From contig MSDW01000001.1 of the NCBI GenBank assembly GCA_001914405.1, positions 1,599,498 to 1,623,497 of the forward strand: a DNA stretch of 24,000 nt. The letters are read 5' to 3'. Made by a program: the position numbers and the translations under genes. The notes below the pieces were generated by a model. It was not told the DNA's origin and ran no database searches. It saw only the letters and a list, made by a program, of their open reading frames with translations. The DNA is from Candidatus Methanohalarchaeum thermophilum (lineage in GTDB: Archaea; Halobacteriota; Methanonatronarchaeia; Methanonatronarchaeales; Methanonatronarchaeaceae). Positions 3,301-21,808 of this stretch are shown piece by piece (positions within the stretch are counted from its first letter, which is position 1; each line of letters starts with the position of its first letter).

Positions 3301-3933
3301 TCAAAGAAATCTTACATCTATACCCCTATTGATTTCAAGTACTGCAGCATCTCCATTCTTAACGGCACCAGGATTAATTATAACAGTCTCACCAATTTCA
3401 GTTTTCCCCTGAGCTTCATGTATATGACCTGATAAAACAGCAAGAGGCTCATATTTCTTAACAACTCTCAAAACACTATCACTTCCAGCATGAGTTCCCT
3501 GCGTAAGATCAACTGCACCTTTTGGCGGAACATGACTAATTAAGATCAAATTATCTTGATCAGGAACCAATTCCTCTAAGACCTCTTCAATTTCTTCCTC
3601 AGACCTCTCCCTAGGAGTATTAAAGGGCGTCGGATTAGAACCACCTAAACCAGCAAAAGTAAATTCCCCGAACTTTTTTCTAGAACCATCAACCAAACCA
3701 CTAACACTAGATAAGGCCTCTTCAACTCCATCAGGATCACAATTCCCAGGAACACCAACTATTTCTTTATTATAATCCTCTATTACTCCAATAACCTCAT
3801 TAGCTAAATCTACAGGCCCAAAATCCGTTAAATCACCTAATATAGCTACCAAATCAGTTTCAGGAGACCTATCCAAAACATCTTTCAGCCGTTCAATATC
3901 ACCATGTATATCCGATAACAACAACATCTTCAT
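3301..3933 (-). CDS. Metallophosphoesterase (calcineurin-like phosphoesterase family)
   Basis: 210 aa. LLLSDIHGD, ILGDLTDFG, GNCD, ISHVPP and SGHIHE are the canonical metal-ligand motifs. Confidence 0.85.
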   Translation of the reverse strand: MKMLLLSDIHGDIERLKDVLDRSPETDLVAILGDLTDFGPVDLANEVIGVIEDYNKEIVGVPGNCDPDGVEEALSSVSGLVDGSRKKFGEFTFAGLGGSNPTPFNTPRERSEEEIEEVLEELVPDQDNLILISHVPPKGAVDLTQGTHAGSDSVLRVVKKYEPLAVLSGHIHEAQGKTEIGETVIINPGAVKNGDAAVLEINRGIDVRFL

Positions 3934-4129
3934 CCAAAAGAACCTCCCAATCCTTTAAAAGAAATACTTCAAAACTAATGGAATCCTACCAATACTTAAA
4001 ACTACTTGATCACTCGACTAAAAAGAAAAAACAGCCAACAAACTAAAGGAAAAACCAAAAATGAAAAACAAAAAAAGAAGAAACAAAACAAAAACGGAGC
4101 TAAAAAAAAAGACCCAGAAACAATAAAAC

Positions 4130-4137: not shown

Positions 4138-5084
4138 AAATCTTTTTTACACCTAAGAACTCAATTCAAAACTCTCCATAGTATTAGGATTTATACTATG
4201 TTGATGAATGCTTTGGATGGCTTTGACCAGTCTTTCATGCCTAATTGTTATTCTCTTGAAGGTTTTTAGCCAGACGAAGAATCTTTCAACAGACTTTCTA
4301 TCCTTGTATGAGTCTTTATCGAACCTGGTCGGTCTTTCCTCTCTTTTTTGTCTTTCTGTTTCTCCCGGTTCCTAAGAATATTACTCTTTGATGTTTCTGT
4401 TTCTCAGATAGTCTCTTATTTTCTTTTGTGTCGCAGGGCTGAGTAGGCTAACATCTCTTTCGGTTTTGTCCTCGGCCCAGGCTCCTGTTTTGATCCACTT
4501 ATCTCCTCAACTGTCTCTTTGAATAGCTTCGAGTTATGATTGTTGCGCTTCGGATAGCTTTATGGAGAGAGGTAATCTCGATCCTTTGTGGTTACGGGCA
4601 TGGATTTTAGGGGCCTCTTTTGTGTTTGTAGCCGCTGGTATCCTACTCTCTGCCCCCATTTTTTGCCTCAACCGCAGGTTGAGTCTATATGCTTGCCTTA
4701 TTCGAGTTCCATTTCTCCGTTCCCTGTATGCTTTTTCTTGAAGCTTTTTGACTATCTGTTTCTAGATGTCTTCCTCTTGCCATCTCTTCAGGCGTCTCCA
4801 TGCCGTAACATAGGATCCAATGCTTTCCAAGGCACATTTACTCCATTCACTTACAACCAGTTACTAGAACGTAAAGCAGTTCCATTAATTGTTTCGTTTT
4901 CCTGTTATCGGCTCATTGGCCTACCAGTTTCCGAGGTGACTAGGAAAAATAGGCTCTATAAACCTCTATTGTTCGTCCGTTGACTCTTTAAACCTCAATC
5001 CCATTTCTACAAAAAACTTAAGAACACAAGCTACTTATCATTTTTGAAATAAGTTTCTAAATTAAAACTAAAACCAAGACATCT
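4138..5084 (-). mobile_element. Decayed IS5-family insertion sequence (about 0.95 kb if the 8-bp repeats mark its ends)
   Basis: It contains the transposase relic at 4153-5004. It is visibly GC-richer than the flanks. Only weak terminal inverted similarity is present (AaATcTtTT / AgATgTcTT). Confidence 0.5.
4153..5004 (-). pseudogene. IS5-family DDE transposase pseudogene (about 8 in-frame stops plus a compensating pair of frameshifts)
   Basis: Minus-strand hand translation, N-terminus: MGLRFKESTDEQ*RFIEPIFP...AWRRLKRWQEEDI*KQIV, which is HTH-like for IS5. Middle: KIHARNHKGSRLPLSI. A frame-shifted stretch follows: NNHNSKLFKETVEEISG...PKEMLAYSA. C-terminus: KKIRDYLRNRNIKE*YS*EPG...FDKDSYKDRKSVERFFVWLKTFKRITIRHERL, the classic IS5 end. 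The stop is TAG at 4155-4153. Confidence 0.8.
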
Positions 5085-5092
5085 TCACCTTA
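5085..5092. repeat. TCACCTTA, right copy of the 8-bp direct repeat
   Basis: Identical to 4130-4137. Confidence 0.3.
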
Positions 5093-5454
5093 TATTGCCT
5101 CAAGAAGACCTTTTATTAATCAAAGATTAGGAGGGTTTTTGTATATGGCACTATTAGGCCATGTCGTTAATTTAATTGTAGTTGGATTTCATTCAATCCC
5201 TTACAGGGCAGGAAGATATGTAGTTCCGCGTTCGATTTAACTTCCTTGACTTTATGGGCTATTTGGCTTTGGTCTGTGTCCTGTTGGGAACTCATGTATG
5301 GGAGGGAGGAAGAACAGCTTTGAGGTTTTTTGTCCACAGGAAACGTTGAAGCTTTTTATATCTCTAATTCATTTAACTCTAACGGAGGTGAAAGGCCAAT
5401 TTTTTCCTCTATTTAATCAGAGATTGGAAGAGGGGATCTTCTTGGCCAACTAAG

Positions 5455-6390
5455 ATGAAATTTAGTCCAATTGCGTCTGAGAGCTTGGGTGTTAGATCAC
5501 TTTCAAGCTATGTTAAATTGAGTAATGGTACTTCTATATTGATGGATCCAGGAGCAGCTCTTGGACCAAAAAGATATGGATACAGGCCACATAAAAGGGA
5601 GTACATAGCTTTAAAGGAAAAATCCAATAAAATTTACAAGCTATCGAACAGAGCCGATATAATAACTGTATCTCACTACCATTTCGACCATTACACGCCA
5701 TCCTTTGAAAATTACTTTTACAACTGGAGTACAGAAGAAAAGGCAATTGATGTAATTAAGGACAAAAAGATTTTTGCAAAACACCCTAAAGAGAATATAA
5801 ACTACTCACAAAAGAAAAGAGCCTATTACTTTGAGAAAATATGCAGGGATCATTCCAAAGAAATCAATTACGCAGATAGAAAGGATTTCAAAATTGGTGA
5901 CGCTAAACTAGAATTTTCTCCACCAGTATACCACGGGCCTAAAGGCACAAAACTAGGTTTCGTAGTAATGACAGCTATAACCGAATCAAATAAGACTTTA
6001 ATTCATGCATCAGATGTTCAAGGCCCAATAAACACTAAAGCATTTAAATGGATAAAGAAAAGAAATCCAAATCTATTGATAGTTGCTGGGCCTCCAGAAT
6101 ATCTGGTTCCTTCTAAACTAAAAAAAGAAAAATACGAAAAAGCCCTCAAAAACATCCGAAATCTTTCTGAAAACACAAAAATACTTGTAGATCATCACAT
6201 ACTTAGAAGCAAGGAAGGACAGAAAATAATTGCTAACGAGGAAAAAATAATGACATTCGCAGATTTTCTAGATGTAGATAATAACTTCTTAGAGTCTAAT
6301 AGGAAAAAGTTACACCGAAAAGAACCCTGCTCAGATGAATTTTACAGAAAAATAAAAGATGGATATTACGTAGAGAACGACATAAAATAG
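5455..6390 (+). CDS. UPF0282-family protein (metallo-beta-lactamase-fold hydrolase)
   Basis: 311 aa. MKFSPIASESLGVRSLSSYVKL..ILMDPGAALGPKRYGYRPH...ITVSHYHFDHYTP fits the archaeal UPF0282/MBL pattern. Confidence 0.7.
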   Translation: MKFSPIASESLGVRSLSSYVKLSNGTSILMDPGAALGPKRYGYRPHKREYIALKEKSNKIYKLSNRADIITVSHYHFDHYTPSFENYFYNWSTEEKAIDVIKDKKIFAKHPKENINYSQKKRAYYFEKICRDHSKEINYADRKDFKIGDAKLEFSPPVYHGPKGTKLGFVVMTAITESNKTLIHASDVQGPINTKAFKWIKKRNPNLLIVAGPPEYLVPSKLKKEKYEKALKNIRNLSENTKILVDHHILRSKEGQKIIANEEKIMTFADFLDVDNNFLESNRKKLHRKEPCSDEFYRKIKDGYYVENDIK

Positions 6391-6602
6391 ATCTTATGAT
6401 AAAAAACACAGAAAATGTATCTAATTAAGGTAAGGATTGAAATCGATTTATTTATATAAGAAGATCCTCTTACTTATCTAACTTCTCTGACTTAAGCTTT
6501 CGAGTTGTAAACCTTTTTTAGTTAGATTTTTAAATCAATATTAACATATTCCTTAATTGTAAGTTTTGGATCTAATAAGGGGTTAATTGAGGCTAGAGTT
6601 TA

Positions 6603-7256
6603 TTGGGGCAAAAAATCAATTCACCGTGTTGGTACAGTTCTTTTGGGATAAGGGATTTTTTTCTGATTTTACATTTGCCTTTTACTAGTGTTGTAATTTG
6701 TTATGTGGTTTTAGGTAATTTAATGTCAGGATATCTCTTTTTTGATAGATTAATTTTATCTATTGTAACTGTATTCTGTTTTTTGGAGGGAACACATTTT
6801 TTGGATGAAGTAAACGACCGTCCGTGGGAAACAAATTTATCTAATAAAATGATTTATTTAATAGCTTCTTTATTTATTGTTTTAGGGTTTTTTACTGGAA
6901 CATATCTGTCAGCAGTCGTAAGTTGGAAACTTTTTCCATTAGTTATAACTGGAACTGTTTTTCCTCCACTCTATGGACTTGAGTTTTTTAATGAATTATT
7001 CCATAACTTATATTTCTTCAGTATTACATGGGGAGGTCTACCCTATTTAGGTGGCTATTTAGTTCAAGAACCGAAATTAGGTTTAGTTTCTCTAATGATA
7101 TCTTTTGCTGTATCCATTAATAGTGGAATAATCTACATACTATATCAAAATACTAAAAAAACTGAAACGAAAACTCTAGCTTGGCGTGTACTAAAGTTAC
7201 AAATCCTTTTTTGGAATATATGGGTTATATCTCTTTTACTAAACGAAATAATTTAA
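6603..7256 (+). CDS. Polytopic membrane protein (about 7 hydrophobic helices), function unknown; start uncertain
   Basis: 217-aa ORF opening with TTG after an in-frame TAG at 6594-6596. Strongly hydrophobic segments. One acidic patch, HFLDEVNDRPWE, follows helix 2. The N-terminal LHLPFTSVVICYVVLG is faintly UbiA-like, but no second Asp-rich motif is present. Confidence 0.5.
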   Translation: MGQKINSPCWYSSFGIRDFFLILHLPFTSVVICYVVLGNLMSGYLFFDRLILSIVTVFCFLEGTHFLDEVNDRPWETNLSNKMIYLIASLFIVLGFFTGTYLSAVVSWKLFPLVITGTVFPPLYGLEFFNELFHNLYFFSITWGGLPYLGGYLVQEPKLGLVSLMISFAVSINSGIIYILYQNTKKTETKTLAWRVLKLQILFWNIWVISLLLNEII

Positions 7257-7966
7257 ACTGGGTGTATGAATTGGAGAACTCTCAAGTAAATGATCTTTTT
7301 ACGAATATCTACACTAATTATGATACCTACAAAAAAATATTTACCGTAGGTCTATCCGAAATATGGGAAAATGCCGTAGTTAATGAAATTAAATCGATAG
7401 AAGGAAAAAATATATTAGATCTAGGAACAGGTACCGGTAGTATCTCCTTTAAAATAAAAAATAGATTTAATAAAAAAATTTATGGCGTTGACAATAACCT
7501 AAATATGCTTAAAATAGCTAAATCCAGGAAAAAAGATATTAACTTAGTAGCTGCAGATGCCGGAAAACTACCTTTCAGAGATAACTTCTTTGATGCAGTC
7601 ATAATAAGCTACATATTTAGATACTACAAATCTGAAAAAATCAGAAACTACCTAGAAGAAATATCAAGGGTCATGAAATCAGGAAGAAATTTAATTTATC
7701 TGGATTTTATGGTACCAAACTCATTTATCCTCAAAAATATACATAAATTCTATATAAAAGATTTCTTTAATCTAATAAAAAAGATCTCTCCTAAAAAAGA
7801 CCTAAATCAAACACTTGAATTTTTAACCCAAGATTACAAAAACTTCTTCCAAAAAAAGGATATAGATGAATTATGTGAATTAATAAATGATAAGGACTTT
7901 AAAAAAACTGAATACAGGAAATTAACTCTACAAACAGCTTTTATTATCAAAACACAGAAAAAATAA
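7220..7966 (+). CDS. Class I SAM-dependent methyltransferase (UbiE/COQ5-like)
   Basis: VNDLFTNIYTNYDTYKKIFTVGLSEIWENAVV (UbiE-type N-terminus), ILDLGTGTGS (SAM motif I), and DAVIISYIFRY. I prefer the ATG at 7220; the track's TTG at 7181 and a GTG at 7262 are alternatives. With ATG 7220 it overlaps the upstream membrane ORF by 37 nt. Confidence 0.8.
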   Translation: MGYISFTKRNNLNWVYELENSQVNDLFTNIYTNYDTYKKIFTVGLSEIWENAVVNEIKSIEGKNILDLGTGTGSISFKIKNRFNKKIYGVDNNLNMLKIAKSRKKDINLVAADAGKLPFRDNFFDAVIISYIFRYYKSEKIRNYLEEISRVMKSGRNLIYLDFMVPNSFILKNIHKFYIKDFFNLIKKISPKKDLNQTLEFLTQDYKNFFQKKDIDELCELINDKDFKKTEYRKLTLQTAFIIKTQKK

Positions 7967-8190: not shown

Positions 8191-8577
8191 TTAGAATTTT
8201 ACTGTTCCTTCTTCTGAATCTACTGAAATCATTCCTTTTTTTGGTAGTTTGTTTATGTCAATTTTATCGATCAGTGGTATTGATGAAATAATAGCTCCTA
8301 CAGCAACTATTGCTTCTGATTCACTGTTTATAATTGCTGATGGCTCTTTATTATTTTTGCTGAGTTGATAAAGTACATAAGAACCAACTGTGGATCCTTT
8401 TCCTTTTGGAAAAACTAGGATTTTATCTTTTACTTTTTCACCTTTTAATTCATGTCCTTCTTCAACTATTTTTCCGGTTTCAGGATCTATTCCACCTAAA
8501 AATGATATAGGTTCATTTGAAAAAAGGATTCTTCCTTGAGCTTTTCCTTTATTATTGCCTCTTCCTTTAATCTTCAC
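8191..8577 (-). CDS. Aconitase X swivel-domain protein (DUF126) = phosphomevalonate dehydratase small subunit
   Basis: 128 aa. [21 protein letters not shown]...[22 protein letters not shown] start with AAGGAGG 6 nt upstream. It overlaps the large-subunit stop by 11 nt. Confidence 0.85.
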
Positions 8578-9742
8578 GGGTTGCCTCCTTTAGGCATTTC
8601 TCGGTACTCGAATAGACTGCATCTACTTCATTTAAGCTCGGTAGGTAAAATGATGCTTTTCCAGAATCTACCATGACCTTATTTATCCCTATCTCTCTGA
8701 GGGGGCTTACAACCATACATGTGTCCATAACAACCTTCACACCTTTTTCCTCTAGCTTAGATATTAGTTTTTTATTCTTTTCAGAGGTTTTTCTAGCCGT
8801 AAAAACCCAAAGCTTCTTTTTAATTTCTTTGTCTTCAATTTCTTTGTATATGTTTTGGAGTTCTTTATTTGATAAGTGAGGGCATCCGATAGCAATTAAA
8901 TCAACATCGTTTAGGTTTTTATTGAACTCATTTTTTATTTCCTCTTTTTCAATTACAATTTCTTCGTCTGGGATCTTGGTCTCTTTATATTCTGGGGTTA
9001 TTTTATCAACATGGTAGAGAGCAACAGCGCCTGTCGCTGCCATTGAAGCACCAAGCGCTTTCAATTCATCTTTATTTGGCTCTGATTTTAAATTGAAATA
9101 GGGAACGGAGTCTTCAACTTTTTTACCTACTATTTTGCCCAATGAACCATAATCGGATCTGGACAGTTCCTCTTCCACTCTTATAGAATAGTCGGCTTCT
9201 CGGTTTCGATCTAGATGATATCCATAGTTAGGTGTTTTTCCTATTAAAGCAGATGCTAATGCCGATGGGCCTCCTTCTCTATTTGTTCTTGCTCCTAGAA
9301 CTGAGTTACAGTAACTTACAGCTGATGATTCTGCCCAAGCAACGTGTTCACCTTTTTTAGGCTTATTTCCTATAAGGTAAGGCGTACAGGAACAGGATGT
9401 TTCAATTCCAATTTGTTCGAATAAATCTATGATCTGCATCTGCTTTTCTGCGAAATCTCTTGAAATTCCAAGTTCCTTCCATTTTTCTATATCTATACCA
9501 GCAGGATTTAAAGTGGTTTTGACTTCTACTTCTTCATCAGTGCTGGCTATATCTTTAATAAATTCAAGACCAGCATCTCCAATGGTCTTATAAGAAACAC
9601 CAGATACCTGAGCACTTTTTATATCAATCAACTTGTTTGCATCGTATATTTCTCCTAATTCGACCAATATCTCCATTGATTTTTGTTTGCTAGGTCCTTC
9701 TTCTCCTTCTAAAATATCTTCTTCTCTTTTGTTCAGAAACAT
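8567..9742 (-). CDS. Aconitase X catalytic-domain protein (DUF521) = phosphomevalonate dehydratase large subunit
   Basis: 391 aa. [60 protein letters not shown] and IGCPHLS match the AcnX catalytic-domain pattern. Confidence 0.88.
8584..8590 (-). promoter_or_regulatory. Shine-Dalgarno AAGGAGG for the AcnX small subunit, embedded in the 3' end of the large-subunit gene
   Basis: The minus strand reads AAGGAGGcaacccGTG. Confidence 0.6.
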
Positions 9743-9756
9743 GGCTTACCTCTTTA

Positions 9757-11052
9757 TTAATCAATGTAATCTTCAAGTTCTATTTCATCCTCTAAAGGAA
9801 CCTTTACCTTGTTTACTTTTTCTTCAGTACCTATTACCTTTGTGGCGTCCATTCCAACTTTTGTTACTGTACCATCTTTTTCTCCTCTTGGATCAAGGCT
9901 TGATCCCTTTACATCGGAAAATATATGGATGTCTTCATCTCCCTTTACCCGTGTAGCTATAGCTCTTTCTAGGTCTGTTTTATCATATATATCAGTGTCT
10001 TCATCTATAACAAGACAATGTTTCATGCTACTATGAGCGTCCATTGCAGCATTTATTGCTTTTTTGCCATCCTTTTTGTTTCTTTTTTCTATTTGAACTA
10101 CTCCGTGAAGGTAACCGCTTCCTCCATCTGTTAAAATGGCATTTTTTACTTTACAAACCTCATTTACCTTATTCATTATCAAGGGCTCATAAGGAAGCCC
10201 CATCATCAGCTTATGTTCGCTTTCAGCAGGTAAAAGACCATGGTAGATAGGGTTTTCCTTGGTCCACATACCTGTTAGCTCTATTATAGGTTGTTGTCGT
10301 ACTCCGTCATATGTACCTGTTATATCTACAAAAGGCCCTTCTTTTTCTCTAATATTGGTTTTAATTTTTCCTTCTAATATTATTTCAGCTTCAGGAACTT
10401 CTAAGTCAACAGAATCACATTTAAGTAGGTTAATACCATCCTTATTTTTATTTTTATTTAGTGAATTAGCTAATTTAAACTCATCGAAACCTCTTGGAAC
10501 CCTGGTAGCCGAGGCTAATAAAATAGAAGGATGAACTCCTATTGCTATTGCTATATCAAGATCTTTATCCTTTTTTTCGCCTTCTTTGTAGTAATCGTAG
10601 AGGTGTCTCTCGACAATCCTTATTCCAAGTTTATCTCTGTCTTTGACCAGCATTCTATGGATTGAGGCGTTTCTTTCGCCCTCTTTATCTTCTGCTACAA
10701 CGATTCCAGATGTGATGTAAGGACCAGCATCCCTTTTATAGTGTTTTAAAATAGGTATTTTATTTAGATCTGGTTTTGATGTATCTATTTTACCCTTTAC
10801 TTCGTTTATTTCTTTAGGATCTTCAATTCCGTTCTGGATCTTAGAAGGTATTTCTTTTACTTTGCAACCAATTGCCTTGGCTACTTTTTTCCTTGTGGAG
10901 GCAAGGTTAGTTACGACCTTTTTATCAAATCCCTTTACATCTTCAAAGACCAAAGCCTTCTTGGTTTTTTTAGATAAAGCTGCTATCTCGTATTCAGTTG
11001 AAACTTCGTTTTTAATCCTTATTTTATCTATATTTTCTAAAAAACTTCTCAT
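9757..11052 (-). CDS. UbiD-family prFMN-dependent decarboxylase, most likely anhydromevalonate phosphate decarboxylase
   Basis: 431 aa. [39 protein letters not shown]. Placement between ubiX and the AcnX genes supports the call. Its ATG directly abuts the ubiX stop (TAA-ATG). Confidence 0.85.
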
Positions 11053-14839: not shown

Positions 14840-15684
14840 AAAAGTCTGATTACATAAGGCTTAGTTTGTTATATGAACTATCAACAACTCCTAAACCAGG
14901 ATGTGTGGATAGAAACCATGAACACATAGATACATCCTTTAATGACTTTATAACATCTGCAATAAGTGTTTCTAGAGTTTTTGAAGAGAATAAAACCTCG
15001 AAACTTGGTTCAATCATATCTCTATCTGCAAAAGGAATGGCAAGATCTCATGAAGGAGGAAATACACATTTTGGAGCAGTATTACTATTGTCACCTCTTT
15101 ATAAGGCATCTGAATCGCTGAATGAAATAACACCTGATAGCTTAAGAAAAACGGCTTCAAGCTTAATAGAGAGATCTGATGTTGAAGATGCAGCTAACTT
15201 CTATAGAGCACTTGATTATGTCGAAGTAGGTGGACTTGAGGAAAAGGATGTAAAGGAACTAGATGCAACATCTGATTTAGCTATAAAAGAAGTCACTGAA
15301 AAAAATATTACATTTAAAGAACTAATGGAAAAATCAAAGCAAAGAGATACAATAGCTAAGGAACTGATCAATGGCTTCGAAAAAACATATGAGGGCTTTA
15401 AATTTCTTAAAGAAAAAGATTTAAATAACGAAAATCTGGTAAAAACATTTATAAGTCTACTCAAATACCCAGATACCCATGTAGCCAAAGTACACGGAAA
15501 AGACCAGTCTAAAAAACTATCTGAGAGAGCCAAGCAGATCATAGAAAATGACTACTCCATTAAACAAATTAAAAAACTAGATAAAAGATTGAATGAAAAA
15601 GGAATAAGCCCAGGAACAACGGCCGATCTACTTTCATCAGTAATATACCTAAAATTACTCTACGACAACAATGAATTTAAATAA
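14836..15684 (+). CDS. CitG-like triphosphoribosyl-dephospho-CoA synthase family protein (methanogen/H4MPT-associated clade)
   Basis: 282 aa. LLYELSTTPKPGCVDRNHEHIDTSFNDFITSA is the CitG signature, and the C-terminus carries GISPGTTADLL. The GTG start overlaps the cofD stop (ATGTGA). Confidence 0.78.
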   Translation: MKKSDYIRLSLLYELSTTPKPGCVDRNHEHIDTSFNDFITSAISVSRVFEENKTSKLGSIISLSAKGMARSHEGGNTHFGAVLLLSPLYKASESLNEITPDSLRKTASSLIERSDVEDAANFYRALDYVEVGGLEEKDVKELDATSDLAIKEVTEKNITFKELMEKSKQRDTIAKELINGFEKTYEGFKFLKEKDLNNENLVKTFISLLKYPDTHVAKVHGKDQSKKLSERAKQIIENDYSIKQIKKLDKRLNEKGISPGTTADLLSSVIYLKLLYDNNEFK

Positions 15685-16243
15685 AATAGGTTTTAAAGAA
15701 AATAGAACAATAGAAACTATATTTACAATAAAAAACAAACAAGATTACCTAATAACTCCTATAGGCGTATGGAAAGAAAAATCAAAGCTCAAATCAAAGA
15801 TATATAGTGGCAACCGATTATTTGAAAAAATAAAAGAAGGAGATAAAGTAGGCATAAACCTAACTAATGACCCCGAGTTTTTTTACAAATCAATAATGGA
15901 TGAAGAAATAAAAAACAACGGTTACAAGATCAAGCAAGCTAATATATTCATCAAGGCAGAAGTAAAGAAAATAGAAGATTACACAGATTTCATCTATGTC
16001 TGGATGGACACATCTAATGTCCAAAAAAAATCAATAGATCCAGAAGGATACTGTAGAGCCAGACAATCAATAATAGAAGCCCTAATACATTATACTAAAC
16101 TGGATATAGACCTAGAACACATGAAATACATTAAACACTACATGAAGATAGTAGAAAAAGTAGGTAGTAAATGGGAAAAAGATCTAATGTCTAAAATACT
16201 GGAAGAAGCAAAAAATAAAAACCAAGAGATAAGAGAAAAATAA
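15671..16243 (+). CDS. DUF447-family protein (split-barrel-like; H4MPT-biosynthesis associated)
   Basis: 190 aa. The N-terminus IETIFTIKNK..YLITPIGVW resembles DUF447 as I recall it. The start overlaps the CitG-like stop by 14 nt. Confidence 0.55.
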   Translation: MNLNKIGFKENRTIETIFTIKNKQDYLITPIGVWKEKSKLKSKIYSGNRLFEKIKEGDKVGINLTNDPEFFYKSIMDEEIKNNGYKIKQANIFIKAEVKKIEDYTDFIYVWMDTSNVQKKSIDPEGYCRARQSIIEALIHYTKLDIDLEHMKYIKHYMKIVEKVGSKWEKDLMSKILEEAKNKNQEIREK

Positions 16244-16921
16244 TTAAAACCTCTTATTGATCCTACTTTTTATTTCTCTCCAGATTGAACTTACGGCTTG
16301 ATTAAGAAATAGAGACACAGGGGTCTTCTTTAATTCTATACGGGTTTTATTTTCTTTGATTGCATTGAGTATATTGGACTTGTCATTGGTATCCACATAT
16401 GTAACGCCATATCCAACCATCTGAGGGATATGAGAATCACTTCCTGCTACGATAGGAATATTGTTCTTTTCTGTAAACCATTTAGCCCTTTTATTTGCAA
16501 GCCCAGTAATATATCTAGAGTTGTATACTTCGACCGCATCTACTTCCACTCCATCCTCCTTTATCTTACCTCCGATACCATGCCTGTATCTATGAAATAT
16601 ATGCGGGGCAATAAGAAATCCACCTTTTTCCCTAGCAATAGATATAGTTTCCCTTATTGGCAGATTTGATGGAATTTTTTCGTTAATTCCTAAAACAAGT
16701 AGATGACCATCCGCCGTAGTTGTTTCTTGTCCACCAATAATTTTAATTTCACGGTCCCTACATAGCTCTTTTGCCTTTTTATTTCCTTCAATTGTATCGT
16801 GATCTGTTATTGCTATTGCATCCAAGTTTTTTCCCTCAGCTTCTCTAATTATCTCCAAAACTTCGCCCTTTCCGTCCTTGGAGTACTTTGAATGGATATG
16901 GAGGTCAACTTTCAGACTAAT
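16244..16921 (-). CDS. PHP-domain (polymerase/histidinol-phosphatase-like) metal-dependent phosphoesterase; 5' end extended beyond the ORF-track start, non-canonical start
   Basis: The track ORF (TTG at 16858) starts at ...[31 protein letters not shown]. The same frame stays open upstream and encodes [21 protein letters not shown], carrying the obligatory PHP HxH motif. The only start candidates are ATT (16921-16919) or CTG (16915-16913), with GGTG 5 nt upstream of the ATT. Confidence 0.75.
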
Positions 16922-17244
16922 ATGAAAACACCTTCACTAAGTATGCTCTGAGAACCAAATCCGAAATTACGAATGATATACATCTAAACATTGGAGTTCC
17001 TAAAATAAATAATCTAATTACATATATCCGCTAAAAATAATTCAAACATTGTTTATTAACTAATTTATGTTAGGCAAAAAAGTTACATACCTTAACAATT
17101 TCAAATAATAAGCAATGAACAATATTCCCAAAAAAACCCAATTTAAGAAGAAAACAAACCCAAACTCCAAAAAATTACTAAAAAAAAATAAATACACTTA
17201 AGAAAAAAAATACACAGATAATCCATAACCTTTAATACTAACAC

Positions 17245-18060
17245 GTGAAATGACCCCCTAGCAAAGCTGTGGGGCTTCCATGTGAGCCCTATTCGGAGTG
17301 GAGTCTGCTTTTTTCCATCCGAGGGGCTTCTCTCACTCCACCTAAATCAACACCTGGAACTATTTGCTCCAAGAGAAGAATTGGATCAGGAAAAATACAA
17401 AAACCCATATATTAACTTAACTTTTAGGGTGGTTCCCTTATTCTCTCTTGGTAGTTTCTACATCAGCCACTAGGACTCTACCCCAAAAGGTTTTGAGTTT
17501 ACCCTAATACATCTTATTTGATGTAGCGTCTTGGGGGCTTTAGCTTAGCCAGAAGACCTTAAAGGCCGTGGGATCGATTTTTGATAGGGCAGACAGATCC
17601 AACCAACTGCCGACTATCCCTAACTAGTTTCTAATACCCTTTAAGTGTTACTTAAGGCATTCATCCTCACGGAAGAGTCGCGGGATTTTCTGCCATACTC
17701 TACTATAAACAGTAACCTGACAACTACTCCCTCCGGTCTAATCAGAGATTAAAGATAGGTTTGTCAGTGGGCTTCGCCTCAAACCCAATGAACTTAGTAG
17801 ACTTGGAATAGTAAACTCCATTAGGTTTCAACACAACACTCCTTTGTTATCTATTTGACTGAGAAGACACCTTCCCAAATCTTTGATTAAGTATGGGTAG
17901 TTCACTGAAGAGCAAATTGACCGTTACCTACACCCTTGGCTGGGATACCTTTCCCTCCAAGAACAACCCTAATTCCAACATTCTTAGAAGCTTATTACGT
18001 AGAAATTACTTTTTATCTAGCTGGTTGAGAAGACATTTTTCTAGATCTGTGGTTTGGGTG
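17245..18060 (-). pseudogene. tnpB: 5'-truncated, heavily decayed IS200/IS605-type tnpB relic with an omega-RNA-like 3' end
   Basis: The minus-strand 3' terminus GGAAGCCCCACAGCTTTGCTAGGGGGTCATTTCAC (17279->17245) parallels the terminus of the plus-strand relic. Fragmentary TnpB-like peptides occur on the minus strand: AFKVFWLS*SPQDATSNKMY*G at about 17566-17500, resembling the zinc-finger/RuvC-III region, and NVGIRVVLGG near 17980. There are many stops. The 5' limit is approximate. Confidence 0.45.
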
Positions 18061-18098
18061 GGTGATGAATTAGTTATGGGTATTTGAAGTATAAGTAT

Positions 18099-19320
18099 AT
18101 GAATGGGTTTGTGGTGTCTTTGCAGTCACTTTTATATAAATATGATGCCAATCTAACGGAAGAGAATAGAGAAGGGTTAAAGAAGCACTTTAGGGTACAT
18201 AAAGGCATCTACAGTAAGGTACTGGAGATACTAAATAATTTAGGTGAATTGATGAAGAAATATGAGATGTATGATAGGTTATCAGAGTGGAGGAAGATAT
18301 CGAATTCTGAGTTTTAAAATGTGTATTCAAAGGCTGCTGAGCAGATTGTTGGGGGAATATATGGCGTGATCAAGGCTTTAAATACAAAGAAAAGGGGGGA
18401 AGGAAAAGAAGGGTTGGAAGGTTAAGGTACATGAATTCGATTAATAGCATTGAAGATCAATTAATTGGGTTGTAAAATAGGCTGAGAAAGAGGGATTATG
18501 TGTTTATTGAGGGTAGGGGGAATTACCTGTAATTTTTCATAGGCTAATTTCAGAAGATGCTGAGGTTAAAGGTGTGGTAAATAAGGGAATGTAGTTGTGG
18601 TGGCTGGGAGGTTATGCTTCGACTGGAAGTTGGGAAACTTGATAAAGAATTAATTACGGAAGATAGTGACATAATTAGGGATAGACCTAAATGTATCTAA
18701 TTTCTTGACTGATGGTGAGGGTAGAGAGGTATAGGATTTTTAAATTATGTTGGAAGAGAAATTTGAGGGAGTTAGGAAAGAGCAAAGGAAACTATTTGGA
18801 AAGGAGGGGGATGCAATAATTGGAAGAAGCAAAAGAGGAGGTTGGCGAGAGCCTATAAGAAACTGAGGGATGCATGAAGTGATTTTTTACATAAACTGTT
18901 AAGAGTATATGTTGATAGGTATGGTGTGGTAGCGGTAGGAGGATTTGGATGGTAAGAACTTATTGGAAGGGGGGAGTAGTGCCCTGAATAGGTGTATAGC
19001 TGATTATGTTTGGGATGAGTTTGTTTCTATGGTTGTTTACAAAGCTTTGTAAGCTGGTGGGCAAGTATGTAGAGGTAGAGGCAAGAGACACTACAAAGAG
19101 TTGCTCGAATCTAAATTGTGATAATAAGGTAGATAAAGAACTAACAGATAGAACCCACAAATGTAAAGAATGTGGTTTAGAAATTGACCGAGACTTGAAT
19201 GCATCTATAAACATCGTAAACAAGGCTATTAACTTGGTAGGGCAGGGACTGTTCGAAGTCAAAGCCCTCGGACACATCGACCTCTGCTGGAACTTCGGTT
19301 CCAGTAAGTCATGTGGTTGA
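18099..19320 (+). pseudogene. tnpB: Full-length but dead IS200/IS605-family tnpB (OrfB) pseudogene (more than 12 stops and at least 4 frameshifts)
   Basis: Hand translation across frames gives LLYKYDANLTEENREGLKKHFRVHKGIYSKVLE (N-terminus) and LGIDLNVSNFLTDGEG (RuvC-I, 18675-18722). It continues with NNWKKQKRRLARAYKKLRDA*SDFLHKLLRVYVDRYGVVAV / EDLDGKNL (RuvC-II) and ADYVWDEFVSMVVYKA. The last stretch is an intact 104-codon ORF: VEVEARDTTKSCSNLNC...HKCKECGLEIDRDLNASINIV (zinc finger plus RuvC-III). Confidence 0.85.
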
Positions 19321-19372
19321 ACAGGGAAGCTCCTTCCTAACAAGAGAAGCAAGTTAGGTAGGGGTATTTCAC
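19240..19372 (+). ncRNA. Omega-RNA (reRNA)-like scaffold overlapping the tnpB 3' end and right end
   Basis: Perfect hairpin CTGGAAC-TTCG-GTTCCAG at 19287-19304. A second stem CCTAAC(11 nt)GTTAGG lies at 19336-19358. The terminus GGGGTATTTCAC is at 19361-19372. This position matches where TnpB guide RNAs are encoded. Expression and function were not tested. Confidence 0.35.
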
Positions 19373-19824
19373 AAGAAAGATTATGTGTTAGGTTTACTCT
19401 CATCCTTTTAGCTAAATAAAAAAAGGGAAGTTGTTTCCAGCCAACTAATAATATGAAATAACCACTTTGATATATAAACTAAGAAAAAAATAGGTTCCTG
19501 AAATACCTCATTGAATTCATTTTATTACCTATGAGGAAAACCAAGAGAATCTAAATAAATAAATTAAACTAAATGTTTTAGATCCCTAATGAATCAAAAT
19601 AGGTTTACATTAGGTTTGGCAGAAAAAGAAGATACATAAGTATGTTTCACTAACTAGGTGTGACTTTCTCCCTCACCAAAATTAGAGATTTTGGAGGGAT
19701 CTTCTCAACCATTGAGATAAGAGAAGAAAACAATAATTGGTTGTAGTATTATAAGATAAAGAGGTAAATACTTTCACGGTTCTTTTGGATCAAGGTATGG
19801 TAACTGAATGGATGGATTTCTAGT

Positions 19825-20340
19825 ATGGAAAAGGAATTATTAATTGATGAGGATGAGATTAAGGAGAAGGTGAGGGAATTAGCTAGAGAGCTGGATAGAA
19901 AATACGTAGATAAGGATCCATTGTTTGTTGGCGTATTGAAAGGAAGTTTCATCTTTCTGTCAGATTTAATAAGGTCGATGGATGCTGATGTGGAAATAGA
20001 TTTTGTTGATGTTGAGTGTTACAGTGATATGGAAGCAGGAGATCCGGAGTTAATAATGGAGGGAACTTCTTCTTTTGAAGATAGAGATGTAGTAGTTGTA
20101 GAAGATATAGTTGATACTGGAAGAACGCTTGAGTTTTTGAAGTCATTTTTCTCAAGTAAGGATGTAGCATCTTTAGAGTTCTGTACTTTGTTAAAGAAGC
20201 CTGAAGGACACGAGTTTGATGTGGATCCGGATTATGTAGGTTTTGATATACCTGATTACTTTGTGGTGGGTTACGGTTTAGATGTTAATGGTAAGTTTCG
20301 GGGCTTGAATGGAATATATTATGTTGTAGATGATGAGTGA
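19825..20340 (+). CDS. hpt: Hypoxanthine(-guanine) phosphoribosyltransferase
   Basis: 171 aa. LFVGVLKGSFIFLSDLIR, IDFVDVECYS, VVVVEDIVDTGRTLEFL (PRPP motif), DYVGFDIPDYFVVGYGLD. Confidence 0.9.
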   Translation: MEKELLIDEDEIKEKVRELARELDRKYVDKDPLFVGVLKGSFIFLSDLIRSMDADVEIDFVDVECYSDMEAGDPELIMEGTSSFEDRDVVVVEDIVDTGRTLEFLKSFFSSKDVASLEFCTLLKKPEGHEFDVDPDYVGFDIPDYFVVGYGLDVNGKFRGLNGIYYVVDDE

Positions 20341-21808
20341 AAATATAGATATCCTCTTAGTCACGGGAAATAAAGCTTATGATGTGGTTAAAGAACAAAG
20401 TAATCAATTAAGTAAGCTAGGATACAACTTAGATGTTAAAAAACTACAGACTGATGTTGCTGCATTTATTGAGCCAAAGATGATGAGTGAAAGTGTTGAA
20501 ACGGGAGCTTACGATTATGTAATAGTACCTGGAAGAACGGAAGCAGATTTTAGTGGGTTAAGCAATGTCTTTAAAGGCCCAAAAAATGCGTTTGATATAT
20601 GTGAAGCTATTGAAGATGGTTTGGATGAGTTATCACCAAGAAAAGCGGCAGATAAAGTAATTGATATAAGTGAGATAACCATAGAGGAACTAAAGGAAAA
20701 AGAAGAACCTAGTTTCACCTTAAATCTAAGTGGTCTTGAAATAGGGAAAGGCCCAGCAACCATAATTGCTGAAATAAATAATGCTGCAACTTTGGAGACT
20801 GAAGATATTCATGAAAATATTAGATATTTTTTGGATCAGGGTGCAGATATAATAGACCTAGGTTTTTCTAATTCTACATCACCAGAAGAGGTAGAAGAAG
20901 TTTTTAAGGTTTTAGATACGGATGCACCGCTTTCTATAGATACCTTAGACCCTGAAAAAATCCGAGTAGCAGTTGACTACGATATAGATCTGGTGTTGAG
21001 CGCTAATAAAGAAGTTATGGATAGAGTAGGCGAAGAATTAGGGAACGAGGTTTGTGTTGTAATTCCAGACGATGAAACTATTGGTTCATTGCTCGAAAAT
21101 TTATCTACTGCGGAGAAATTAGGTATTAAAACTATAGCTGATCCTATACTATCACCTCCTAACTCTGGTTTGGTAGATTCGATCCAAAGATGTCATGAGT
21201 TAAATAAGTTAAAACCTGGTTTACCCACTATGATGGGTGTTGGTAATGTAACAGAATTAATAGATGCTGATAGCTTAGGCATAAATGCTTTAATGGCCAA
21301 TATAGTTTCAGAGCTTTCTGTAGATCTTTTATTAACTACTGAAGCAAGTTTGAAGACTAAGGGCAGTGTAAGAGAATTAAATAAATCTTGTAAAATGGCT
21401 TATATATCTAAGATGAAGGAAACTTATCCAAAGGATTTAAACATAGATTTACTAAACCTAAAAACGAAAAAAAGAAAAGAGTTTCCTCCAGAGAAGCTAG
21501 GAGAAGTGATTGATGGATTACATGAAAAAGAAGTAACTTCGAGTAAAAGCCCGAAAGGATGCTTCGAGATAGGAGTAGATAGAGAAAAAAAAGAGATTAT
21601 AGCGGTTTTTCATTCAAAGAACTCAGAAAAACATCTAACAATAAAAGGAAGAAAAGCAGATCAAATAATTAAAAAAATTACTAAAAGAGAGTTAATAGAA
21701 GACCTTAACCACTCGGCTTACCTAGGTCAAGAGCTAAAGAAAGCTGAAATCGCCCTAAAAACAGGTAAAAACTATATACAGGACGAAAAATTACTGGAAT
21801 CTCTTTAA
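20330..21808 (+). CDS. Dihydropteroate-synthase-like pterin-binding protein with N-terminal extension and C-terminal DUF4346-like domain (H4MPT-biosynthesis associated)
   Basis: 492 aa. IIAEINNA, GADIIDLGFS, LSIDT and MGVGNVTELIDADS are pterin-binding-barrel-like. The C-terminus GCFEIGVDREKKEIIAVFH...LNHSAYLGQELKKAEIALKTGKNYIQDEKL is DUF4346-like. The start overlaps the hpt stop by 11 nt. Confidence 0.75.
   Translation: MMSENIDILLVTGNKAYDVVKEQSNQLSKLGYNLDVKKLQTDVAAFIEPKMMSESVETGAYDYVIVPGRTEADFSGLSNVFKGPKNAFDICEAIEDGLDELSPRKAADKVIDISEITIEELKEKEEPSFTLNLSGLEIGKGPATIIAEINNAATLETEDIHENIRYFLDQGADIIDLGFSNSTSPEEVEEVFKVLDTDAPLSIDTLDPEKIRVAVDYDIDLVLSANKEVMDRVGEELGNEVCVVIPDDETIGSLLENLSTAEKLGIKTIADPILSPPNSGLVDSIQRCHELNKLKPGLPTMMGVGNVTELIDADSLGINALMANIVSELSVDLLLTTEASLKTKGSVRELNKSCKMAYISKMKETYPKDLNIDLLNLKTKKRKEFPPEKLGEVIDGLHEKEVTSSKSPKGCFEIGVDREKKEIIAVFHSKNSEKHLTIKGRKADQIIKKITKRELIEDLNHSAYLGQELKKAEIALKTGKNYIQDEKLLESL

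Follow-up and report, generated by a model that had tools for sequence, protein, structure and literature searches.

A one-strand tract of A>G and C>T changes in a tnpB relic of Candidatus Methanohalarchaeum thermophilum

The tnpB relic and its composition

Candidatus Methanohalarchaeum thermophilum HMET1 is a moderately thermophilic, extremely halophilic, methyl-reducing methanogen of the moderately thermophilic class Methanonatronarchaeia, and its genome was obtained from an enrichment culture (PMC9796771). Three proteins encoded in the DNA studied here match HMET1 proteins exactly, on a 1.69-Mb contig. The HMET1 DNA covered by our analysis is a single stretch of 24 kb (the window), in which the F420 genes cofE and cofD are followed by genes for CitG, a DUF447 protein and a PHP protein. 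After the PHP gene come about 2.8 kb of insertion sequence (IS) debris (16860-19720), and then genes for HPRT, a pterin-binding protein and MetRS. The debris contains the relic of an IS200/IS605-type tnpB element, most of whose sense strand is densely altered by A>G and C>T changes (Table 1).

Table 1. Features of the tnpB element and its surroundings in the window.
Feature	Positions	Strand	Basis or remark
Whole IS200/IS605-type tnpB-only element (left end, tnpB pseudogene, right end)	18010..19372	+	DNA homology
Left end, non-coding	18010..18098	+	Putative TATA-like TTTTTATC at 18010-18017; putative hairpin GAAG-ACAC-CTTC
tnpB pseudogene	18099..19357	+	Stops and about 9 frameshifting indels; three-frame translations
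Tract hypermutated by A>G and C>T, solely on the sense (top) strand	18036..19112	+	Homologue alignment
Unmutated 3' part: zinc-finger/RuvC-III coding, omega-RNA-like region, right end	19113..19372	+	
Conserved structured RNA-like region, probable omega-RNA scaffold	19020..19372	+	Right-end hairpin at 19325-19337
Second, unmutated left-end fragment	17844..17907	+	Direct repeats D1, D7; 166 nt upstream of the relic
Inverted, unmutated left-end fragment	19690..19722	-	TCTTCTCAACCATTGAGATAA = reverse complement of TTATCT..TGGTTGAGAAGA
G+T-rich, C-poor patch, HPRT upstream region and intact HPRT (19825-20340)	19722..20400	+	A 215, C 56, G 184, T 224

We compared the relic with homologous DNA from four loci (L081, L082, L001 and L002; mean column identity to the relic 81%) and with three proteins, P0001, P0002 and P0003, the last of which comes from the related single-cell genome SCG-AAA382B04. 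Homology to the four loci begins near 18010 with TTTATCT..TGGTTGAGAAGAC and stops at TTCAC (19372), beyond which the two copies from the single-cell genome (L001 and L002) diverge. The conceptual TnpB matches P0001-P0003 at E 8e-104 with 50-57% identity (50% to P0001), all three carrying PF01385 and PF07282, and Pfam matched PF07282 in the relic itself at 19006-19320 (E 2e-14). The element thus has the TnpB domains, the ends with subterminal hairpins (GGAAG-CTC-CTTCC at the right end) and the structured 3' RNA region of a tnpB-only IS200/IS605 (IS1341-like) element. For this 3' region RNAalifold predicted a consensus of 88 pairs, and third-codon-position identity among the homologues climbs to 0.73-0.87 from about 19016; Rfam gave no match for the region, and a terminator scan gave no hit, including at 19112. 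At the left end, the TATA box and the hairpin are putative readings from sequence, and the 3' arm of the hairpin is mutated to TTTT in the relic.

The copy has no intact reading frame, every frame of the relic having stops in addition to the frameshifting indels. Within the tract, alignment to the homologues gave eight insertions (one of 5 nt, the others of 1 nt) versus one deletion. Most insertions in the relic (18099-19261) lengthen short runs of A or T. One more, a +1 insertion at 19261, puts the C-terminal tail out of the homologous frame, so that the 104-codon open reading frame (ORF) at the 3' end, taken as intact in a preliminary description of this DNA, is not wholly intact. A second tnpB relic placed next to it on the minus strand in that description was not detected by tblastn or Pfam.

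The preliminary description had drawn attention to an extreme depletion of cytosine on the coding strand, and this depletion is real. Recounting gave 7 C and 40 G at 18481-18600 (earlier 7 and 41), 13 C and 80 G at 18721-18960 (earlier 13 and 82) with no C at all at 18721-18780, 43 C and 55 G at 19081-19320 (earlier 49 and 57), and 17 C and 28 G in the cofD sample (earlier 17 and 26). The tract as a whole contains A 351, C 81, G 327 and T 318, a GC skew of 0.60. In sliding windows the skew is 0.5-0.78 over about 17990-19060, where G makes up 321 of 400 G+C (binomial p=1e-35 against 0.5 and p=2.5e-15 against the typical coding-strand skew), and falls to 0.04-0.18 by 19120-19300. Among 178 other tnpB regions the GC skew was 0.08 +/- 0.09 with a maximum of 0.31, which leaves the relic more than five standard deviations outside. 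The homologues do not share this composition (C 16%, GC skew -0.09 to 0.17): column for column, their base fractions are A.42-.50, C.16, G.14-.23 and T.19-.20, those of the relic A.33, C.076, G.31 and T.28. Thymine is raised, as had been claimed, and guanine equally so, because A>G changes outnumber C>T changes; as A>G appears as a gain of G and not as a loss of C, it had escaped the earlier reader.

Spectrum, context and limits of the changes

To give the changes a polarity we used the columns at which three near-intact homologues agree, 547 of them in the 5' part. The relic differs at 110 of these columns, with 60 A>G, 33 C>T, 6 A>T, 3 T>G, 2 G>A, 2 C>A, no T>C, and one change in each of four other classes, including A>C and C>G. 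Expressed per ancestral base, C>T reaches 47% and A>G 22%, against 2.3% for G>A (2/88) and 0% for T>C (binomial p 2e-16 for the directional bias). Relative to the closest homologue there are 195 A>G and C>T changes and 30 reverse transitions, and directional changes total about 150 in about 1.1 kb of the relic. Transversions are rare, so that the tract consists almost purely of transitions, which fits deamination better than alkylation or abasic-site bypass. The earlier proposal of strand-specific C>T hypermutation therefore holds as to strand, since C>T is 20 times as frequent per site as G>A, and fails as to the dominant change, A>G being the larger class. Neither of the two refuting tests put forward with that proposal, one on homologue composition and one on the substitution spectrum, overturned hypermutation as such. 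The two lesions that had been named, CGA>TGA at 18875 and TCA>TTA, are both seen in the DNA alignment.

Among the comparison genes only that of P0001 has a full ORF (406 aa), the closest homologues being themselves slightly damaged: the P0002 gene (L082 1622-2855) is frameshifted near codon 60, within a run of A, and both tnpB copies of the single-cell genome have in common a 1-nt insertion that splits the ORF. No closer or unmutated copy was found, the best match in a scan of genome contigs having 66% amino-acid identity, and two metagenome scans and one viral scan giving at most 45% identity or nothing; nor did these genome-contig, metagenome and viral scans yield a second hypermutated copy. 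Two other tnpB pseudogenes (L151 and L152) showed at most mild asymmetry, with 19 versus 3 changes in L152. The latter (609-1700 of Ga0105107_10097547) is an unrelated tnpB pseudogene with nine stops, and compared with six relatives it has A>G 13, C>T 6, G>A 1 and T>C 2.

The changes are unaffected by selection. Codon positions 1 and 2 do not differ (A>G.18,.20 and.31 and C>T.41,.41 and.69 at positions 1, 2 and 3), and the non-coding left end was struck as hard as the gene, with C>T at 7/10 and A>G at 7/17 sites of 18035-18102. As coding and non-coding positions were struck alike, the damage acted on a dead gene or created one. Adaptive acidification (K>E and similar replacements) was rejected as a source of A>G, since stops were created, the non-coding end was struck and the codon-position rates are equal. 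No preference for a 5' or 3' neighbour was found for A>G or C>T (chi-square p 0.24-0.41). By 5' base, C>T occurred at 17/31 sites after A, 3/8 after C, 5/16 after G and 8/15 after T (p=0.41), the 3' neighbour of the mutated C showed no preference (p=0.24), and A>G was most frequent after a 5' G (18/59).

The tract has sharp ends. Its first signature site is 18036, about 25 nt inside the left end, with a single A>G in 18005-18034, so that the skewed 5' part described earlier is confirmed but already begins before the ATG (18099), in non-coding left-end DNA. Its last signature sites are 19100, 19107 and 19112, beyond the switch previously placed at 19050-19080, and to the right of 19112 a single change is seen among 64 A/C sites (P=5e-8 if the rate of the tract applied). 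Between the two ends the density is flat (positional trend p 0.95 and 0.16), with no clustering (runs test z=-1.1).

Transversion distances of the 5' and 3' parts are alike, at 3.6/4.0% from P0002, 4.7/3.5% from the single-cell genome copies and 12.3/9.5% from P0001, and both parts therefore belong to the same lineage. This speaks against a chimera of distant lineages, which we rejected; the boundary could still be due to conversion from a close sister copy. Right of the boundary (19113-19340), G>A and T>C changes affect 6 of 74 sites versus 2 of 201 in the tract (8% versus 1%, p=0.0056), a difference that, in small numbers, hints at a switch of the damaged strand; within the right-hand part itself, six G>A or T>C changes stand against one A>G or C>T (p=0.12).

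We rejected a tract end set by the start of the omega-RNA, as conservation and predicted structure begin at about 19020, some 90 nt before the tract ends. The tract overlaps the first conserved hairpin (19039-19056), where the loop CAC (19048-19050) has become TGT while the A and C of the stem are unchanged, which is an anecdote only. Since either change makes a G.U pair, A>G out of A-U and C>T out of G-C, the fold of a sense RNA would largely survive.

Exposure of a single strand as a possible origin

We favour, with belief and doubt about evenly balanced, the explanation that both amino bases were deaminated on the sense (top) strand of a discrete segment while that segment was single-stranded. 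It is established that uracil and hypoxanthine, through their base pairing, give C>T and A>G upon copying. Had the sense strand of tnpB been single-stranded from 18036 to 19112 (about 1.08 kb), its replication after damage would have made C>T and A>G permanent on that strand only, while the complement and the flanks stayed untouched. In strands that spend time single-stranded, A>G accrues linearly and C>T asymptotically (PMC2695485), and treatment of single-stranded DNA with nitrite deaminates A as well as C, base pairing being protective (PMC9150344).

Three routes to such exposure can be considered. In IS200/IS605 elements the top strand is excised as a single-stranded circle, and the affected strand, being the sense strand, is this top strand (PMC5027513). 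The exposed DNA may thus have been the top-strand transposition intermediate, or a fragment of it re-annealed into the resident copy. The same strand is also the non-template strand of tnpB, and the tract begins about 25 nt downstream of the putative TATA box, so a stable R-loop formed by the tnpB transcript would be a second candidate. A resected break near 19112-19144 would be a third. For one brief exposure a catalyst would probably have been necessary, either an enzyme or nitrosative chemistry, and cumulative exposure over generations at about 55 °C would have needed good repair of uracil and poor repair of hypoxanthine. Archaeal Pol-B and Pol-D detect uracil and hypoxanthine in the template (PMC5045986), and archaea have dedicated sensing for both (PMC5045986, PMC8596578). 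Altogether, the earlier interpretation is supported in part: the relic shows strand-specific hypermutation of the mobile strand of a transposon, but on two bases and without a motif.

Several observations weigh against deamination of an exposed strand. By an estimate from rate constants, spontaneous hydrolysis at 55 °C would take about 8-16 years of continuous single-strandedness to produce the C>T load. Deamination is far slower for adenine than for cytosine, but in the relic the ratio per site is no more than about 2.6 to 1. A transposition intermediate should span the whole element, yet the last 260 nt are spared, and the tract ends inside the conserved RNA-like region and not at its start. 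Predicted unpaired probability shows no overall difference between mutated and unmutated sites (p 0.58 for A and 0.08-0.25 for C). Deamination leaves unexplained the nine indels of the tract, eight of which are insertions. The polarity of the changes depends on homologues that are just 72-80% identical in DNA, none closer having been found, and intact genes carry related silent-site skews, which makes a slower regional process conceivable.

Deamination of an exposed strand has a parallel in the strand asymmetry of vertebrate mitochondria and chloroplasts, in which C>T and A>G accumulate at neutral positions of one strand, the one that replication leaves single-stranded, while the reverse transitions are not raised (PMC2695485). 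The relic shares these one-strand changes, but the organellar asymmetry is genome-wide, gradual and graded by exposure, whereas the relic has a 1.1-kb box with sharp ends, far denser and without any positional trend. A chemical likeness is nitrous-acid deamination of single-stranded DNA, which affects A and C at comparable rates, yields transitions only and is hindered by base pairing (PMC9150344). It is, however, laboratory chemistry and also yields G>A, seen in the relic at only 2/88 sites. Moreover, we know of no source of nitrosative stress for HMET1, which is an anaerobe. Transcription-associated mutation and R-loops likewise affect the non-template strand, and the tract start relative to the putative TATA box would suit them, but transcription-associated asymmetries are about two-fold and that of the relic is twenty-fold or more.

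Hypermutation in dense, strand-coordinated tracts is familiar from tumours, from yeast and from the restriction of retroviruses. Kataegis-type clusters at resected breaks and forks in yeast and tumours resemble the relic in their kilobase-scale tracts, full strand coordination and sharp ends. They arise through APOBEC activity (C only, at TC) or alkylation with mixed outcomes, whereas the relic has changes of A and C, no motif and near-pure transitions, and lies in an archaeal chromosome; clusters at breaks also typically switch strand at the break, of which the relic shows only the hint described above. APOBEC3 editing of retroelements and fungal repeat-induced point mutation (RIP) are similar in that a mobile element is killed by dense transitions, with CGA>TGA and CAA>TAA stops, and the preliminary description had suggested a process of this kind. 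The relic shares strand coordination with APOBEC and AID (C>T 33 versus G>A 2), but these enzymes act on cytosine only, APOBEC in TC or CC context, whereas the relic has more A>G (60) than C>T (33) and no preferred 5' neighbour. RIP affects both strands, in CpA context, and all copies of a repeat; in the relic G>A is rare and the 3' neighbour without preference, and the two other left-end fragments in the window are unmutated, a comparison that covers window copies only. The TC, CC, WRC and CpA motifs being absent, an APOBEC- or RIP-like reading is not supported. ADAR-type hyperediting produces A>G only and disfavours a 5' G, while the relic also has dense C>T and its highest A>G rate after G. 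A diversity-generating retroelement would change A to any base, unlike the relic with A>G 60, A>T 6, A>C 1 and C>T 33, and the genes of the window include no reverse-transcriptase domain. The lack of a neighbour motif therefore disfavours enzymes like APOBEC, AID, RIP and ADAR, the excess of A>G over C>T makes a cytosine-only deaminase insufficient, and the absence of A-to-any-base change disfavours a diversity-generating retroelement.

Neighbouring patches and competing explanations

Besides the relic, the window contains two further left-end fragments of the same IS family (Table 1). The direct one retains ACACCTTCC where the relic has ACATTTTTC. As a direct and an inverted fragment lie within 2 kb, at least three insertions of this family must have occurred here.

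Poverty in cytosine is not unique to the transposon: HPRT, a phosphoesterase gene and genes of a related genome are patchy in the same respect. Contrary to the preliminary description, which confined the skew to the relic, the intact HPRT gene has a comparable GC skew of 0.57 with 7.9% C. The patch that contains it has the inverted left-end fragment (19690-19722) as its left edge, includes non-coding DNA with 8% C (19722-19824) and fades by about 21100; at 4-fold degenerate sites of HPRT, C is.04 and G.21. Compared by codon pairs with the orthologue in a related Methanonatronarchaeia metagenome-assembled genome (MAG, locus L165), HPRT shows C/T 35 versus T/C 4 and A/G 46 versus G/A 21, while its amino-acid replacements are without direction (6 versus 7). 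The patch is as C-poor as the relic (C 8%, G 27%, T 33%) and the orthologue of the related MAG is of normal composition. In that MAG an adenine deaminase gene lies directly upstream of HPRT (8311-10510), where HMET1 has IS debris (16860-19824); a tblastn search found no remnant of it in the HMET1 debris.

In a metallophosphoesterase (MPE) gene on the minus strand (3301-3933), 4-fold sites are A.16, C.04, G.13 and T.66, compared with A.40, C.12, G.09 and T.39 for pooled 4-fold sites, and the skew extends into 167 nt upstream (3301-4100 of the window, minus strand). In the related MAG, genes other than HPRT are shifted in either polarity, and over L165 15591-20474 the shift is constant per DNA strand across opposite gene orientations (p down to 1e-18). 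Kilobase-scale skew patches in L165 lie at 4301-7430, 7500-7800, 1716-2612 and 15591-20474. The skew climbs gene by gene from cofD to a flavoprotein gene, stops abruptly at 7430 and is opposite beyond; 4-fold sites are A.11 and T.58 in the flavoprotein gene, and A.73-.75 and T.02-.03 in the PALP, Hexapep and HTH genes. Just downstream of the P0002 element, L082 2850-3512 is likewise G+T-rich, with 4-11% C and a GC skew of up to 0.74, and contains the gene of an acidic response regulator. What prevails in the patches of intact genes is an A/T swap together with G/C skew, unlike the pure transitions of the relic, and these patches may have arisen by a slower process akin to that in the relic or by a different one. 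In view of the two-base spectrum, the lack of a motif, these silent-site skews and the unmutated left-end fragment nearby, a defence targeting transposons is not shown.

These patches invite the explanation that a sustained, regional and strand-asymmetric mutation pressure, perhaps linked to replication direction, transcription or R-loops, acted on the locus over many generations and that the relic, being neutral, displays it in full, with the unskewed 17844-18009 and 19113-19721 representing younger insertions or gene conversion. We regard this as possible but clearly on the doubtful side. It would account for silent sites of MPE and HPRT that are C-poor and G+T-rich, for the inclusion of non-coding DNA in the patches, for the C/T bias of HPRT relative to its orthologue, for the per-strand shifts of both polarities in L165 and for the similar patch beside the element in L082, and the indels of the relic, at about 8% of its substitutions, are in a proportion that suits ordinary neutral decay. 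Yet the relic is changed almost purely by transitions, whereas the patches in intact genes show mainly the A-to-T swap at 4-fold sites, and its asymmetry of at least 20 to 1 is far beyond the shifts in the patches. A regional pressure also sits badly with a sharp edge at 19112 inside one element whose two parts have equal transversion distance, with an unmutated left-end copy 166 nt away and with the directionless replacements in HPRT; the evidence for it from HMET1 spans 24 kb.

A single-strand deaminase acting on both A and C, or two such enzymes, might instead have attacked the single-stranded transposon intermediate, or a transcript later copied into DNA; such an enzyme could be a toxin or a defence protein. 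This explanation, which widens the deaminase idea of the preliminary description to two bases, we consider unlikely. Without a catalyst, a load of about 0.6 events per C and 0.25 per A could scarcely build up during one brief exposure. Strand coordination and sharp edges resemble enzyme-driven clusters, the tract lies entirely within the element and on its mobile strand, and a start at about +25 from the putative TATA box would suit an RNA 5' end. However, the relic shows no neighbour preference, whereas every characterised family of DNA or RNA deaminases known to us has one. Nor do we know of a natural enzyme with dual activity on A and C in DNA, which further counts against this explanation. 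The 24 kb contain no deaminase or reverse-transcriptase domain, and the left-end fragment next to the relic is unchanged.

Error-prone synthesis of one strand is, in our judgement, improbable. Here G.T (or A.C) wobble mispairs in both orientations would have been made during gap filling, break-induced replication or translesion synthesis, from skewed or deaminated nucleotide pools, and would have escaped mismatch repair. It has the attraction that a single type of mispair yields both A>G and C>T on one strand, that a box-car tract with sharp ends is what a synthesis tract should look like, that the excess of +1 insertions in short runs (eight insertions versus one deletion) resembles polymerase slippage, and that the changes are unrelated to predicted secondary structure. 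But per-site errors of 22-47% in a single pass are orders of magnitude above those of known polymerases, and the near absence of transversions is unlike the spectra of low-fidelity Y-family enzymes. The hairpin at 19039-19056, with three of three loop bases changed and none of the A/C sites in the stem, also speaks, as an anecdote, for damage to a folded strand. Finally, an assembly or sequencing artefact, or a contig made from reads of different populations, is very improbable even for a pile of repeated IS fragments in a genome from an enrichment culture (PMC9796771), as read errors cannot produce some 150 changes of one direction within 1.1 kb alongside homologous frames and conserved blocks, the neighbouring genes are intact and the transversion distance is equal on either side of the boundary.

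Going beyond deamination of this one segment, a process in Methanonatronarchaeia, enzymatic or chemical, that deaminates A and C without sequence preference on kilobase-sized single strands could erase a transposon copy in one or a few hits and, in a weaker and repeated form, shape the G+T-rich silent sites of intact genes; we put this forward very tentatively, doubting it more than we believe it. Our literature search found no dense strand-coordinated tract described in an archaeal or bacterial chromosome, nor one in which A and C are altered together. A two-base process of this kind, if real, would correspond in archaea to APOBEC editing or RIP. Should the tract stem from a single-stranded transposition intermediate or from an R-loop, it would record naturally where, and for how long, DNA is single-stranded in a thermophilic, extremely halophilic methanogen, and would also show which deaminated bases evade archaeal repair. 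If an enzyme was responsible, it would be a context-free editor of both A and C and so of interest to those working on base editing. The uneven skews at silent sites of intact genes are relevant to phylogenetic and codon-usage work on this compositionally odd lineage. Elsewhere in the window, a weak remnant of an IS5-type DDE transposase lies at about 4200-4500 on the minus strand (PF01609, E 4e-4).

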